NCBI GenBank assembly: GCA_044351885.1
Contig: JBILEW010000011.1
Location: 2,180 to 66,179 of the forward strand
Reading direction: 5' to 3'
Source: Bdellovibrionota bacterium
GTDB lineage: Bacteria > Bdellovibrionota_C > UBA2361 > OMII01
DNA length: 64,000 nucleotides
The position numbers and the translations under genes are program-made. Below, piece by piece: positions 21,835 through 38,980 of the stretch. The notes under the pieces are model-generated. The model searched no databases. It was not told the origin of the DNA and saw only the letters and a program-made list of their open reading frames with translations. Position 1 is the first letter of the stretch. Every line of letters begins with the position of its first letter.

Positions 21835-22048
21835 CTTATCGAGGGGGCTCTATTTCGCTGAGCCCCAGAATGTTTCGCACTATTCCACCCTTTTGGGTAT
21901 AGGGATTGTACCGCCTGGGGTCGAGCTAAAGGGCGGGGCCCAGGAAGGGGATACGCCTCCCACGAACAGATCCTTGTGAGGGTTACTGATATCGAAATCC
22001 TATCGCCCTACACCCCTGAACGTATGAATATTCCATCTTCTCCCCCAG

Positions 22049-22222
22049 GGGAGCGAGGCAAAACCTGACACTCTCCCACGTGAACGTGCTCGTGCACCTG
22101 AACGTAAACGTACCCGGAACAAAAACATCAAGTTGTTCGGGCACGTGCACGTTTACGAGCACGAGCAACGTGCACGTGGTATGTCGAAAAGTGAGACCAC
22201 AGATAAGTTCTGCCTCGCTTCC
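22049..22222. repeat. palindromic MITE-like element, B-type copy (B1)
   Basis: About 90% identical to 35421-35600. Outer IR: ggagcgaggcaaaac ... gttctgcctcgcttcc. Hexamer-periodic arms: cacgtgaacgtgctcgtgcacctgaacgtaaacgtacccgg / cgggcacgtgcacgtttacgagcacgagcaacgtgcacgtgg. These flank the loop aacaaaaacatcaagttgtt. Confidence 0.8.
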
Positions 22223-22231
22223 TTAGCTACG

Positions 22232-22249
22232 AAAAAAAAGGGGGGGGGG
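22232..22249 (+). repeat. homopolymer junction A8G10
   Basis: Read directly: g aaaaaaaa gggggggggg c. It is intergenic, 10 nt downstream of element B1 and 189 nt upstream of the ATG at 22438. Confidence 0.9.
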
Positions 22250-28277: not shown

Positions 28278-28732
28278 TTTTGGCTCATTGTAGAATCGCG
28301 TGGGTGGTAACGAGGAAAGGGATAACATAAATACTTGTTTCGGCGCATAAATAGCGCCTTTTCACGTGAACGTGCTCGTGCACGTAAACGTGAACGTACC
28401 CGAATGAGCAACATTATTCCCTCCCGCCCCAACTAGAGCAGTATGCTCGACTATGAAAAATTAGACGTCTATCGAGCAGCGCTATTTCTCAACGGCACGA
28501 GGATCAGTGATGGAGTGTGGCGCCCTCTTTGATCTGTTAAACGCTCTAAGCTATGTCTCTCCCGACGAGTCTCGCGCGGATAAGCGTTTGCTTACAAGGA
28601 CTGCAGCCATGCTTTCTAAGCTATGCCCTCAGCCCGCATGAGACCTGTTTCGGGTACGTTTACGTTCACGTTTACGTGCACGTTCACGTCGGCATAACAC
28701 CTAGTCTTACCCACTCGATTCCGCGAACACCC
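28278..28732 (+). mobile_element. palindromic MITE-like element, A-type copy with four-helix-bundle gene remnant (A2)
   Basis: Outer IR: ggctcattgtagaatcgcgtgggt ... acccactcgattccgcgaacaccc. Inner hexamer-periodic arms lie at 28363-28404 (cacgtgaacgtgctcgtgcacgtaaacgtgaacgtacccgaa) and 28649-28690 (ttcgggtacgtttacgttcacgtttacgtgcacgttcacgtc). It is collinear with 38538-38980. Confidence 0.75.
28443..28641 (+). pseudogene. internally deleted and frameshifted four-helix-bundle protein gene (23S rRNA intervening-sequence protein family) inside element A2
   Basis: An N-terminal piece, MLDYEKLDVYRAALFL, is followed by a frame break. The C-terminal piece is ECGALFDLLNALSYVSPDESRADKRLLTRTAAMLSKL. 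These match the conserved ends of the family (KLDVY-KA ... GS--E---L---A--LGY------L---L--I-KML--L), but the central ~60 aa are missing. Confidence 0.6.
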
Positions 28733-28767
28733 TTCATATGTAGAAATGAGCACGTGCCTCGATCCAA

Positions 28768-34978: not shown

Positions 34979-35049
34979 TCCTCGTGTGCGCCTCCCTACA
35001 TACTCAACAGTCCTCGCTTTCGGAAGGCACCGTACTGAAGATATAGACG

Positions 35050-35415
35050 ATGCGGATCAAGCAGATACTCCCTTTCACAGCTCTCTTTTTCTCGTTGAGC
35101 ACCCTCGTGTGCTGCGCCCTCCCCGCACTTTTCGTTACCCTCGGCGCCGGGGCAACCTTCGTATCGCTGCTGGGCGTTTTTCCGCAATTGATCTGGTTCT
35201 CGGAACACAAAATAGCGGTCTTCTCCGTAGCTGCGATCCTCCTTGCGCTCAATTTCCTGCATCGGCGCCTGACTCCTCAGGAATGCCCAACCGATCCACT
35301 GCTCGCTCTTCAGTGCACCCGAGCGCGCAGAATCTCAGGAGTCGTTTCCGGGCTCTCGGTCTTCTTTCTCGTCGTGGGTGCTTTCTTCGCCTTCGTCGCG
35401 CCGTTGCTATGGTAG
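35050..35415 (+). CDS. MerT-like metal transport membrane protein (121 aa)
   Basis: TM1 has the vicinal Cys pair LSTLVCCALPALFVTLGAG (compare MerT ACCLGPLVLIALG). A second Cys pair lies in the loop after TM2 (LHRRLTPQECPTDPLLALQC). There are three TM helices and the size is the same as MerT. Confidence 0.6.
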   Translation: MRIKQILPFTALFFSLSTLVCCALPALFVTLGAGATFVSLLGVFPQLIWFSEHKIAVFSVAAILLALNFLHRRLTPQECPTDPLLALQCTRARRISGVVSGLSVFFLVVGAFFAFVAPLLW

Positions 35416-35420
35416 AGGGC

Positions 35421-35600
35421 TAGGGAAGCGAGGCAAAACCCTACACTCTACCACGTGAACGTGCTCGTGCACCTGAACGTAAACGTACCCGGAACAAAAA
35501 CATCAAGATGTTCGAGCACGTGCACGTTTACGAGCACGAGCACGTTCACGTGGTATGTTCGAAAGTGGGACCACAGGTAAGTTTTGCCTCGCTTCCCTAG
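35421..35600. repeat. palindromic MITE-like element, B-type copy (B2)
   Basis: Perfect 20-nt terminal IR: ctagggaagcgaggcaaaac ... gttttgcctcgcttccctag. Hexamer-periodic arms: ccacgtgaacgtgctcgtgcacctgaacgtaaacgtacccgg / gagcacgtgcacgtttacgagcacgagcacgttcacgtgg. Paralog of 22049-22222. Confidence 0.85.
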
Positions 35601-35611
35601 GGGAGGAGAGG

Positions 35612-35637
35612 CGAAACCACGCGAACGCGTGGTTTCG
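35612..35637. terminator. GC-rich palindrome/hairpin between convergent genes (no U-tract)
   Basis: cgaaaccacgcg aa cgcgtggtttcg has perfectly complementary 12-nt halves. It lies between the merT-like 3' end (with B2) and the 3' end of the minus-strand REC-kinase gene. Confidence 0.35.
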
Positions 35638-35655: not shown

Positions 35656-36855
35656 CTATTGAGTATGAACCTTCGGTAGGAAAAACTTGAACGAGGTTCC
35701 CGCGCCCGCCTTCGACTCGATGTGCAACCAACCTCCGTGAGCTTGCGTAACGCCGTGGGCCACGGCTAGTGCGAGTCCCAAGGCGTGCGTGTCACCATCC
35801 GTGAGATCGGCCGGTCGGTGCGCGTCCCGGATCTCTTCGTCCGTCATTTCACGACCACTCCCATGAATATCTATTACTACGAACGAGTCCGGGACAGCGC
35901 GGGGGTTCTGCAGATTCGATGCCTTGATGTATTCACTCTCCGCATCTATCGTGATGGTGCCCTGACCATCGATCAGTCGCTGCGCATACAGAAGAACTCC
36001 CACAACGGCATTCCGGAGAGCTTCTTCGTCGACGAATACGGCCATATCCTCCCTGATTGAGCGAACATCGAAGGAAACACCGGGCTTCTTGAGCTTCGAA
36101 AGGCCCTCCACTGCTCGAGCGATGACATCGGAGATTCGTTCCACCCCCAACTCCCGTGGCCCCTGTTGCGATGCCCACAACAGCTTCTGAACGAACAGCT
36201 TCTGCTCGTAACACCCCTCTAGTGCGAGTTTGACGTAACGATCTTCCAACGCTTGAAGAGTACCGCAATGCGCCAGCCAATCGAGATAACCCATAACTCC
36301 AGCAAGTGAGTTGTTGATGTGGTGCGCGATGCTACCGATAACGCCGCTGAGATCCTCCATCCCTGCCGTCGGCGATGGTGGGTGCTCCGACGGCGGACGC
36401 GGTTGTTCCTCCTCACCTCCCACACCCAAACGTGTGAGCATGGACGAGTACGCATCGAGCTCCTCGCGCAGATCTTCTTCGACCTGGTGCTGCGCCATCC
36501 CAAATTCGATGGCGAGTTCGAGCTCCTGATCGTCGATCGGCTTCACCAGATATGCCAGGGGATGCGCAAGTCGCGCTTGATTAATCGTCTCGTGATCGGC
36601 AAATGCCGTCAGAAAGATCGAAGGTATGTGGAAGCTTCTCTGTAGTACGTCAGCGACTCGCGTACCCGGTACGCCCCCGGAAAGCTTGATGTCCATGAGC
36701 ACCAGATCGGGCGCGAGGTTCTTCGCCATCGCTACGGCCTCGCCGCCCGAGCCAGCAGTCCCCACTACGCGATGTCCCATGCGCTCCAAGCGTTCCTTCA
36801 ACTCGAGAGCAAAGAGCCGCTCGTCCTCACATACTAATATCTTCAAAGGCTCCAT
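35656..36855 (-). CDS. hybrid response regulator receiver + histidine kinase protein (399 aa)
   Basis: REC: KILVCEDERLFALELKERL...DLVLMDIKL. HisKA-like H-box: IAHHINNSLAGVMGYL. HATPase end: GGWLHIESKAGAGTSFKFFLPK. Confidence 0.85.
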   Translation of the reverse strand: MEPLKILVCEDERLFALELKERLERMGHRVVGTAGSGGEAVAMAKNLAPDLVLMDIKLSGGVPGTRVADVLQRSFHIPSIFLTAFADHETINQARLAHPLAYLVKPIDDQELELAIEFGMAQHQVEEDLREELDAYSSMLTRLGVGGEEEQPRPPSEHPPSPTAGMEDLSGVIGSIAHHINNSLAGVMGYLDWLAHCGTLQALEDRYVKLALEGCYEQKLFVQKLLWASQQGPRELGVERISDVIARAVEGLSKLKKPGVSFDVRSIREDMAVFVDEEALRNAVVGVLLYAQRLIDGQGTITIDAESEYIKASNLQNPRAVPDSFVVIDIHGSGREMTDEEIRDAHRPADLTDGDTHALGLALAVAHGVTQAHGGWLHIESKAGAGTSFKFFLPKVHTQ

Positions 36856-38537: not shown

Positions 38538-38980
38538 TTTTTGGCTCATCACGTTTTCGAGTGGGTCATAGCGAGCACAGAGATAGCGCAAGCTCTTGTT
38601 TTGACCTATAAATCGCGCCTTTCCACGTGAACGTGCTCGTGAACGTAAACGTGAACGTACCCGAACGAGCAACCTTACCTCTGCGCTCCGGAAATAGAGC
38701 AGCATTCTCGACTATAAAAAACTGGACGTCTATCGTACAGCGCCATTTTCTCAATAGCTTGGGGATCCGTCATGGAGTGTGGTGCCCTCTTTGATCTGTT
38801 AGACGCTCTAACCTATGTCTCTGACGGCCAGTATTGCGCTGGGAAGCGGTTGCTTACAAGGATTGCAGCCATGCTTTCCAATCTATGCCGTCAGCCCGCA
38901 TGACGCCTGTTTCGGGTACGTTCACGTTTACGTGCACGAGCACGTTCACGTGGACTACCCACTCGATTCCGCGATGACCC
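38538..38980 (+). mobile_element. palindromic MITE-like element, A-type copy with four-helix-bundle gene remnant (A3)
   Basis: Outer IR: ggctcatcacgttttcgagtgggt ... acccactcgattccgcgatgaccc. The inner arms at 38624-38665 and 38911-38952 are complementary over 42 nt with 1 mismatch. It is collinear with 28278-28732. Confidence 0.75.
38704..38903 (+). pseudogene. decayed four-helix-bundle protein gene remnant inside element A3 (start codon ATG changed to ATT, premature stop, same internal deletion as A2)
   Basis: ILDYKKLDVYRTAPFSQ* is followed by MECGALFDLLDALTYVSDGQYCAGKRLLTRIAAMLSNL. Roughly 80% nt identity to 28443-28641 by eye. Confidence 0.6.

Follow-up and report, generated by a model that had tools for sequence, protein, structure and literature searches.

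Correia or NEMIS elements of Neisseria are palindromic MITEs with 26-bp terminal inverted repeats (TIRs) and a TA target-site duplication, and we know of no parent insertion sequence (IS) for the Correia elements. They form hairpins of 100-200 bp in intergenic regions, often at gene ends, and may affect mRNA processing. The MITEs derived from IS of the IS5 family, for which IS5 of E. coli serves as the reference, are short, non-coding and present in high copy numbers, have the 16-bp TIRs of an IS5-family IS and may carry several cargos in one pair of ends. The IS5 target is the tetramer Py-T-A-Pu, of which CTAG is the commonest, followed by CTAA and TTAG (PMC5493358). Hairpins have also been described in the intervening sequences of the 23S rRNA genes of Coxiella burnetii and Leptospira, where an ORF for an S23p (PF05635) protein is enclosed in a long stem that is cut by RNase III (PMC4990558).

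Here, we examined a family of hairpin elements, called B, of which 2 copies, B2 and B1, are located in a window of 64,000 nucleotides from a Bdellovibrionota bacterium. The genome assembly to which the window belongs, here called G000, consists of 173 contigs with a total size of 4.0 Mb and a G+C content of 55%. B2 and B1 are very probably copies of a non-autonomous element (MITE) with the ends of an IS5-family (IS5-group) IS and a hairpin as cargo. The family resembles the Correia and NEMIS elements in its size, its hairpin and its intergenic location, often at gene ends, but its target duplication is 4 bp long and its parent can be assigned to the IS5 family. It shares with the IS5-derived MITEs the small size, the high copy number, the lack of coding capacity, the 16-bp TIRs and the variety of cargos, whereas its interior is foreign to the parent IS and consists of a long hexamer hairpin borrowed from a four-helix-bundle cassette. 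The B family belongs to a well-known kind of selfish DNA, to which the shared, recombining hairpin cargo is a modest addition.

The preliminary description placed B2 at positions 35421 to 35600, with a perfect 20-nt terminal inverted repeat. The repeat is indeed perfect (ctagggaagcgaggcaaaac / gttttgcctcgcttccctag, at 35420-35439 and 35581-35600) and the right end is correct, but the left end had been set one base too late, and B2 with the CTAG tetramers at both ends covers 35420-35600, or 181 nt. The element itself, between the left (35420-35423) and the right (35597-35600) CTAG, is 173 nt long. Read on the forward strand, it starts with the left TIR, GGAAGCGAGGCAAAAC (35424-35439), and a short spacer (35440-35448), followed by the left arm (35449-35491), which is built from hexamers of the type NNCGTR (CACGTG AACGTG CTCGTG CACCTG AACGTA AACGTA), a 21-nt loop (35492-35512) and the right hexamer-repeat arm (35513-35555). 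A second spacer of about 25 nt that ends in TTCGAAAGTGGGACCACAGGTAA (35556-35580), recognized in the alignments, is the source of the asymmetry of the element and is followed by the right TIR, GTTTTGCCTCGCTTCC (35581-35596), which is in the reverse orientation. Both arms were identified in a repeat search, in which they were 84% complementary and located 21 nt apart, and because of the hexamer build an arm looks much like its complementary strand. A single ORF with a minimum length of 50 amino acids overlaps with B2, namely a reverse-strand frame of 50 codons that runs out into the flanking sequence; as in other MITEs derived from the IS5 family, the element is small and has no gene for a transposase.

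The second copy, B1, had been described as a paralog with about 90% identity and a slightly degenerate terminus, and was found on the forward strand at exactly the positions previously given, 22049-22222, with 91.7% identity to B2 over 180 nt. It represents an older copy of the same MITE, with the TIRs GGGAGCGAGGCAAAAC (22049-22064) and GTTCTGCCTCGCTTCC (22207-22222), as read from the sequence, and a left arm at 22076-22116 according to the repeat search. In the sequence and in the alignment, its flanking tetramers were degenerate, with CCAG on the left side (22045-22048) and TTAG on the right side (22223-22226).

A census of the 4.0-Mb assembly yielded 85 BLAST hits to full-length B elements, 45 on the forward and 40 on the reverse strand, of which 84 were non-overlapping and the median identity to B2 was 89%. 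In total, 211 merged loci in the same assembly contained any match to B. The copies are dispersed and have unrelated flanks, in line with the initial impression of a repeated, mobile-looking element, and the family is clearly neither restricted to the 2 sites in the window nor free of polymorphism. Homologs were identified in 20 of the 25 genomes first sampled from the same genus, with copy numbers that varied from none to hundreds per genome, and in none of the 16 other families of the order that were sampled. The B family is confined to the genus.

To define the ends, the 84 copies were aligned with 50 nt of flanking sequence. The limits of conservation were exact, with CTAG followed by GGAAGCGAGGCAAAAC on the left side and GTTTTGCCTCGCTTCC followed by CTAG on the right side, and the sequences beyond were unrelated. 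Since CTAG is a palindrome, it could belong to the inverted repeat or represent a target-site duplication, as already considered in the preliminary description, and it is the copies that deviate from CTAG that decide. The flanks were CTAG/CTAG in 22 of 83 copies; among the other 61 pairs, 10 were identical in direct orientation (TTAG in 4 copies, CTAA in 3 copies, and TTGG, ATAG and AGAG) as compared to 2 that were identical in inverted orientation. Furthermore, CTAA/CTAA and CGAG/CGAG flanks were observed around B copies from congeneric genomes. The direct identity of these non-palindromic pairs identifies the tetramer as a direct duplication of 4 bp with the consensus sequence YTAR. The B elements have thus been inserted at Py-T-A-Pu tetramers, mostly CTAG, that are duplicated on both sides. 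The pattern is as in IS5 of E. coli, which has the same 4-bp duplication, and CTAG is likewise the most frequent tetramer in the B family, followed by TTAG and CTAA.

The flanking tetramers also bear on the type of enzyme that has moved the elements. CTAG is a preferred target of IS630 as well, and hairpin-rich elements are typical of HUH transposases. It might thus be argued that B was mobilized by an IS630/Tc1-type transposase, with only the TA inside CTAG being duplicated, or by a Y1/HUH enzyme of the REP-RAYT or IS200/IS605-like type that recognizes the hairpin. However, a TA-only duplication, as in IS630-like and Correia-like elements, predicts combinations such as TTAG on the left side with CTAG on the right side, and was ruled out by the matched, non-palindromic pairs TTAG/TTAG, CTAA/CTAA, CGAG/CGAG and ATAG/ATAG, which require that 4 bp are duplicated. 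The elements moved by HUH enzymes have neither target duplications nor TIRs and are inserted beside a fixed tetranucleotide under guidance of the hairpin, whereas the left and right 4-bp duplications of B co-vary and TIRs of 16 bp are present, which is at odds with both the REP/BIME-RAYT and the IS200/IS605 systems. Given that the termini also match an IS of the IS5 family exactly, we consider it exceedingly improbable that one of these other enzymes was the mover.

Since CTAG is a palindrome, the evidence for the duplication comes from the minority of copies with other pairs and from a single empty site within the genome. This site was found in a tandem repeat of about 130 nt on contig C85, where one unit contains the element (...GCCG CTAA-B-CTAG CCTACGTGG) and the adjacent unit has a single CTAG without the element (...CCCCCTAGCCTACGTGG). 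The intergenic spacer that is orthologous to the B2 site also lacks the element in 3 congeneric genomes: it is about 50 nt long in G016 and G022 and consists of an unrelated sequence of 182 nt in G009. With only 72% to 81% identity between the flanking genes, these loci are too diverged to provide the exact sequence prior to insertion, and the comparison demonstrates absence only.

The parent of the TIRs was recognized in a search of metagenome contigs with a transposase fragment from the congeneric genome G012 as the query. One of the contigs, L104 (1,218 bp), is made up of an IS of 1,210 bp with a CTAG on either side. The right end of this IS agrees with the B TIR at all 16 positions (GGAAGCGAGGCAAAAC) and the left end at 13 of 16. 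It contains an intact ORF of 334 codons, the product of which matches the IS5 family transposase model NF033581 with 286 bits (cut-off, 140) and also PF05598 (DUF772) and PF01609 (DDE_Tnp_1). The TIRs of B consequently correspond to those of an autonomous IS of the IS5 family. The nearest named relatives of the transposase are found in Pseudomonas and Xanthomonas, at 44% to 49% protein sequence identity.

The L104 IS is an element of the same genus as the B family. A nearly identical internal fragment of it, with about 835 nt aligned and 97% protein sequence identity over residues 1 to 176, was identified in the congener G045, and fragments of IS of this type were present in 12 of 35 genomes from the genus. 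A decayed element of 580 bp in G012, with B-type TIRs and TTAG/TTAG flanks, encodes an N-terminal fragment that matches positions 1 to 54 of NF033581 (E = 3.9e-12) and, in another frame, a C-terminal KVRYRG... motif, close to the C-terminus encoded by L104 (...KVRYRGILKN...). Another decayed element, in G022, is 340 bp long and flanked by CTAG/CTAG, and remnants with B-type ends, 4-bp duplications and IS5-type transposase fragments were also present in G004 and G009. The elements in these 4 genomes are true deletion derivatives of the IS and separate from the B family.

The B elements have nothing in common with either end of the L104 IS beyond the terminal 16 nt, and no subterminal IS sequence was detected in them. 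B is thus not a simple internal deletion derivative but a chimeric MITE with foreign cargo, which we infer is mobilized in trans by the cognate transposase. The G000 assembly contains no intact transposase gene with B ends, and a scan of 35 genomes from the genus with PF01609, PF05598, NF033581 and the L104 protein recovered only fragments of the parent IS. These genomes are fragmented MAGs, from which multi-copy IS often drop out, and the intact IS was itself found on a stand-alone contig of 1.2 kb.

Several candidates for an autonomous partner were rejected. In one congeneric genome (locus L018, on G011:C374), exact B TIRs were located 1,501 bp apart, on either side of a gene for a transposase of 397 amino acids. 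This gene belongs to an IS of the IS4 family (NF033592) that has different ends, CACTACTGTCCAATAGG, is flanked by a duplication of 8 bp, GCACGAGC, and is nested within the right arm of a B copy. The sole PF01609 locus in the G000 genome, on contig C60, represents a frameshifted element of the IS4 family with unrelated ends. Pairs of TIRs separated by 1 to 2.5 kb in this genome enclosed ordinary genes and no transposases.

The patterns of divergence indicate that the family has been active recently. In an ML tree, 82 of the 83 copies from G000 clustered in one well-supported clade and 17 of the 18 copies sampled from G009 in another. The mean identity was 86.8% within G000, 81.5% between the 2 genomes and 95.7% within G009, where the sample was drawn from the best BLAST hits and may represent a single subfamily only. 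The presence of genome-specific clades indicates that the elements were amplified independently after the species had diverged, and very recently in G009. It was also noted that 2 copies in G000 with different flanks, at C67:67474 (CTAG) and C72:22408 (TTAG), were identical from TIR to TIR, a sign that elements have recently moved in G000 as well.

The ends of B are not limited to elements with a hairpin. The end sequence GGAAGCGAGGCAAAAC occurred 291 times in the genome when up to 2 mismatches were accepted, and was followed by hexamer arms in about half of the cases. The remaining ends belonged to other elements with YTAR flanks, many of which were located at contig ends. An armless family of about 182 bp was abundant inside B-type ends (for example at C6:20796-20977), and a minimal form of only 57 bp (C94:43306-43362) and several rarer forms were also present. 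A total of 114 paired ends were located at a distance of 40 to 700 bp from each other and covered about 0.5% of the assembly. A single pair of IS5 ends thus carries several unrelated cargos.

An additional end of the same IS family was observed next to B2, at 35602-35635 on the forward strand. It is TIR-like with 3 mismatches, and 28 of its 34 nt are identical to the left end of the L104 IS. It is an older solo end that adjoins B2 and shares the right CTAG with it. Likewise, 8 of the 84 B copies were located next to the end of another element, an arrangement that is to be expected if the preferred target is regenerated at each insertion.

The window also contains 2 elements of another type, the A elements (28278-28740 and 38539-38975), and it had been proposed that their arms and the inner arms of B form one sequence family. 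This was confirmed: the B arms match the A arms at 28363-28404 and 28646-28692, and at 38622-38665 and 38908-38954, with 87% to 91% identity, and recombinants between the 2 types of elements were found. The 2 types occur in the same genome and genus, but the ends of the A elements are 24 to 30 nt long, GGCTC(A/T)TCGTGGAATCGAGTGGGT, and unrelated to those of B, and a remnant of about 245 nt from a four-helix-bundle gene with internal deletions is located between their arms. Rather than 2 subfamilies of one element, as suggested in the preliminary description, A and B are therefore distinct transposon shells that enclose a homologous hairpin module. The A elements are also less numerous in this genome, with about 15 long copies versus about 85 copies of B.

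In B2, the 21-nt loop is found in the place of the four-helix-bundle gene of the A-type cassettes, and the edges of the loop (CCCGGAAC... and ...GATGTTCG) are similar to those edges of the A arms that face the gene (CCCGAACGAGCAAC... and ...CCTGTTTCGGG). Intermediate forms were identified on 2 contigs. On contig C73, a B shell surrounds arms and a remnant of the gene, and contig C88 contains a recombinant between B and A, in which the arms enclose an intact gene for a protein of 115 amino acids that matches PF05635 (E = 4.5e-23) and TIGR02436. The B hairpin is homologous to the stems around the PF05635 genes of G000, which have a gene-in-a-stem layout like that of the 23S rRNA intervening sequences. 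Unlike these, which are located in helix 25 or 45 of the 23S rRNA, B has no PF05635 ORF within the stem and no other ORF, has transposon ends with target duplications, and is located between protein-coding genes at both sites in the window, in which no rRNA match was obtained. The hairpin looks like an exchangeable cargo that is swapped by recombination through the arms, as in the recombinant forms, and not like a core that defines the element.

The occurrence of the same arm family inside 2 unrelated shells and in chimeras would also be compatible with another interpretation, namely that selection and mobility concern the hexamer-repeat hairpin itself, either alone or together with the four-helix-bundle gene, and that the IS5-type and A-type ends are vehicles that it has colonized. 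The arms would then be a functional array, such as a binding site for an Avd-like protein or a stem for RNase III, as in the 23S rRNA intervening sequences. Conservation within the B family could be taken to support this, since it reaches its maximum in the left arm, at 0.956 mean column conservation versus 0.90 to 0.91 for the TIRs and 0.82 to 0.87 for the spacers, with the minimum of 0.82 in the short left spacer. However, almost all hairpins without a gene were located in the B shell, and no clear population of naked hairpins was evident among the approximately 160 arm pairs in the genome, 70 of which had both B ends and another 42 of which had one recognizable end. Furthermore, the B ends also amplify armless cargos, so that it is the ends, and not the hairpin, that explain the spread in this genome. 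Taken together with the absence of compensatory changes described below, we regard the colonization of the shells by a selected hairpin as rather unlikely. The plain MITE model does not explain the high conservation of the left arm, which may have several causes: the source copies could be under constraint, the approximately 300 arms could undergo gene conversion, or the alignment itself could produce the difference.

As had been recommended, we also calculated the folding energy of the hairpin, which is very stable on both strands. Folded as RNA, the 180 nt of B2 gave -100.6 kcal/mol for the forward and -108.4 kcal/mol for the reverse strand, compared to about -47 and -53 for shuffled sequences (z = -12.9 and -12.1, respectively), and none of 200 shuffles was equally stable. 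Such a stem could be taken as a sign that the B copies are genes for structured small RNAs, or regulatory RNA hairpins with a host function, for example as terminators or mRNA stabilizers of the REP/BIME type. It may be added that convergent spacers, such as the one that contains B2, are mildly over-represented, with 19 of 65 intergenic copies as compared to about 20% genome-wide. The context is nevertheless mixed, since 18 copies are located between divergent and 28 between tandem genes and 14 overlap with ORFs in a crude prediction, and there is no orientation bias. The target duplications and the IS5 termini also show that the copies originated by transposition.

Searches for RNA features pointed in the same direction. 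No match was obtained in the window against Rfam 15 at the gathering thresholds, and the hits below the thresholds were chance matches to miRNA hairpins (E = 0.03-0.08, 23 bits versus cut-offs of 85 to 160). No promoter-like or terminator-like site was found in association with B2, and there is no T-run after the stem. Covariation was absent from the consensus fold, which contains 67 pairs: the fraction of paired positions was 0.908 (90.8%) with the true partners and 0.907 (90.7%) with shuffled partners, and 20 double changes were observed in the stem pairs versus 14.9 expected. These counts refer to the minimum-energy fold of the consensus sequence, as RNAalifold gave a fragmentary structure for the 83 copies. 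Fold pairs, Rfam, promoter and terminator searches and gene context thus provided no support for a host function of the hairpin at its sites, and we consider it highly improbable that the B family consists of RNA genes or regulatory hairpins. Instead, the sequences suggest that the B copies decay neutrally from a hairpin-forming source. If transcribed as part of a 3' UTR, as might be the case for B2, the very stable stem could, speculatively, act as a barrier to exonucleases or serve as a substrate for RNase III.

The B2 element is inserted between 2 convergent genes. The upstream gene (35050-35415, forward strand), located downstream of a gene for an HMA-domain protein, encodes a small protein without a Pfam match. 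The genuine stop codon of this gene is the TAG at 35413-35415, which precedes the B2 duplication by 4 nt and has the same position in G009 and G022. Homology to these 2 genomes also showed that a predicted ORF of 145 amino acids at 34986-35423, which ends in the CTAG of B2, is spurious. The downstream gene (35656-36855, reverse strand) encodes a protein with a response-regulator receiver domain and a HATPase_c domain, as identified by Pfam. B1, on the other hand, is flanked by 2 divergently oriented genes, one for a DUF1175 protein and one for a GH3/SpoIID protein.

The ends of the adjacent genes were examined for all copies. For 21 of the 83 copies, or a quarter, the duplication provided a neighboring ORF with its stop codon, TAG or TAA. 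A total of 23 gene ends were located at offset 0, whereas every other offset from -40 to +10 was represented only once or twice, and several of the ORFs that share their stop codon with the element are long, 400 to 880 amino acids. Random insertion into non-genic YTAR sites is expected to yield about 12% to 13%, and the observed value, which is inflated by the crude ORF caller, as illustrated by the spurious ORF at B2, is about twofold higher. The enrichment is suggestive. A likely cause is that YTAR contains TAG and TAA and that the duplication restores the stop codon, which makes such insertions harmless. Stop codon regeneration would be a simple reason for why elements of this kind are packed against gene ends.

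The preferred model is hence a MITE with two 16-bp TIRs of the sequence GGAAGCGAGGCAAAAC, to which a DDE transposase of the IS5 family supplied in trans would bind. Only the 16-bp ends are derived from the IS, and the interior is a hairpin of NNCGTR hexamers with arms of 43 bp, homologous to the stem around the genes for PF05635 (23S-rRNA-IVS-protein / Avd-like) proteins in the A elements. Judging from the intermediates, the most likely scenario is that the IS5 shell took up a complete gene cassette, or that the hairpin was acquired through recombination between arms. The gene would then have been lost and replaced by the 21-nt loop, and it is this short hairpin form that appears to have been amplified, by independent events in different species of the genus. 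The elements have moved very recently, and the copies probably decay neutrally thereafter.

These results provide an explanation for the hairpin in the window as a high-copy MITE for which the parent IS family, the target rule and the recent activity have been identified. They should also be of help for the annotation of MAGs from this uncultured genus, in which the B repeats break contigs and create false ORFs, such as the one at 34986-35423. As a more tentative suggestion, to which we assign a low probability, the NNCGTR hairpin may be the cis half of a self-recognizing module of which the Avd-like protein is the trans half, or a stem that is processed by RNase III. If so, capture by unrelated shells would be a route whereby cassettes of the intervening-sequence type are moved between loci, including into rRNA genes. 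In a broader perspective, the sharing of one stem by 2 unrelated shells indicates that the poorly understood four-helix-bundle cassettes of the 23S intervening-sequence type can hitch-hike on transposons.

Two copies of B, the hairpin MITE with IS5-family ends, provided evidence of very recent transposition in the genome studied here. The copies, at C67:67474-67653 and C72:22408-22587, were identical from one terminal inverted repeat to the other, yet were differently flanked and carried different 4-bp duplications (CTAG and TTAG, respectively). Another B copy was inserted in one unit of a tandem array of ~130-nt units (C85:1-700 and C144:85900-86086), and this insertion was the source of the empty-site comparison. 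The array adjoined a sequence (...GGTTCAAATCCCACC...) that appeared to be the 3' terminus of a tRNA gene. In the congeneric genome G011, a B copy was itself the target of an insertion: an IS4-family IS, located at positions 1186-2710 of locus L018 on contig C374, interrupted its right hexamer arm. This IS had the ends CACTACTGTCCAATAGG and an 8-bp duplication, GCACGAGC, and encoded a transposase of 397 amino acids with DUF4372 and DDE_Tnp_1 domains; a frameshifted IS of the same type was identified in the studied genome at C60:15564-16756.

The B-type ends were not confined to elements with hexamer arms. The genome studied here also contained another abundant MITE family (~182 bp) and a minimal form of 57 bp, both of which had GGAAGCGAGGCAAAAC ends and YTAR flanks, as in B, without the arms. 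Examples outside the window were found at C6:20796-20977, C9:1714-1897, C20:12393-12574, and C94:43306-43362. Since many of these arm-less elements were located at contig ends, the assembly probably breaks at them. In crude genome-wide ORF calls, TAG was the most common stop codon (1205 TAG, 1168 TGA, and 876 TAA). Such a preference is unusual among bacteria, and it may have arisen artificially from the ORF caller and from TAG codons supplied by the MITEs.

Within the window, the B2 copy adjoined a solo IS-end remnant (35602-35635), with the right CTAG common to both. The remnant was identical at 28 of 34 nucleotides to the left end of L104, an intact IS5-family element from a metagenome contig, and the spacer at B2 is therefore mostly transposon debris. 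The remnant also contained a palindrome (ACCACGCG-AAC-GCGTGGT), which looks like a small terminator. Directly past the right flank of the B1 copy, and upstream of a GH3/SpoIID gene, a run of A8 was followed by a run of G10 (22230-22249; cgaaaaaaaagggggggggg); this tract may be prone to slippage, or it may have been introduced by the assembly.

The A1 copy (11945-12117) retained both A-type ends, GGCTCATCGTGGAATCGAGTGGGT ... ACCCACTTGATTTCACGAAGAGCC, and had lost the hairpin and the gene almost entirely, with ACATGTGAACGTTCACGTCGG as the sole residue. Judging from this copy, gene-less derivatives arise from the A shell also.

Chimeric elements were identified elsewhere in this genome, outside the window. 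In the element at C88:43100-43850, a single B-type end was followed by hexamer arms that enclosed an intact gene for a four-helix-bundle protein of 115 amino acids (matching PF05635 and TIGR02436), and then by an A-type end and further B sequence. At C73:5150-5550, B-type ends enclosed the arms and a gene remnant. On the basis of these arrangements, the hexamer arms appear to be recombination points between element families.
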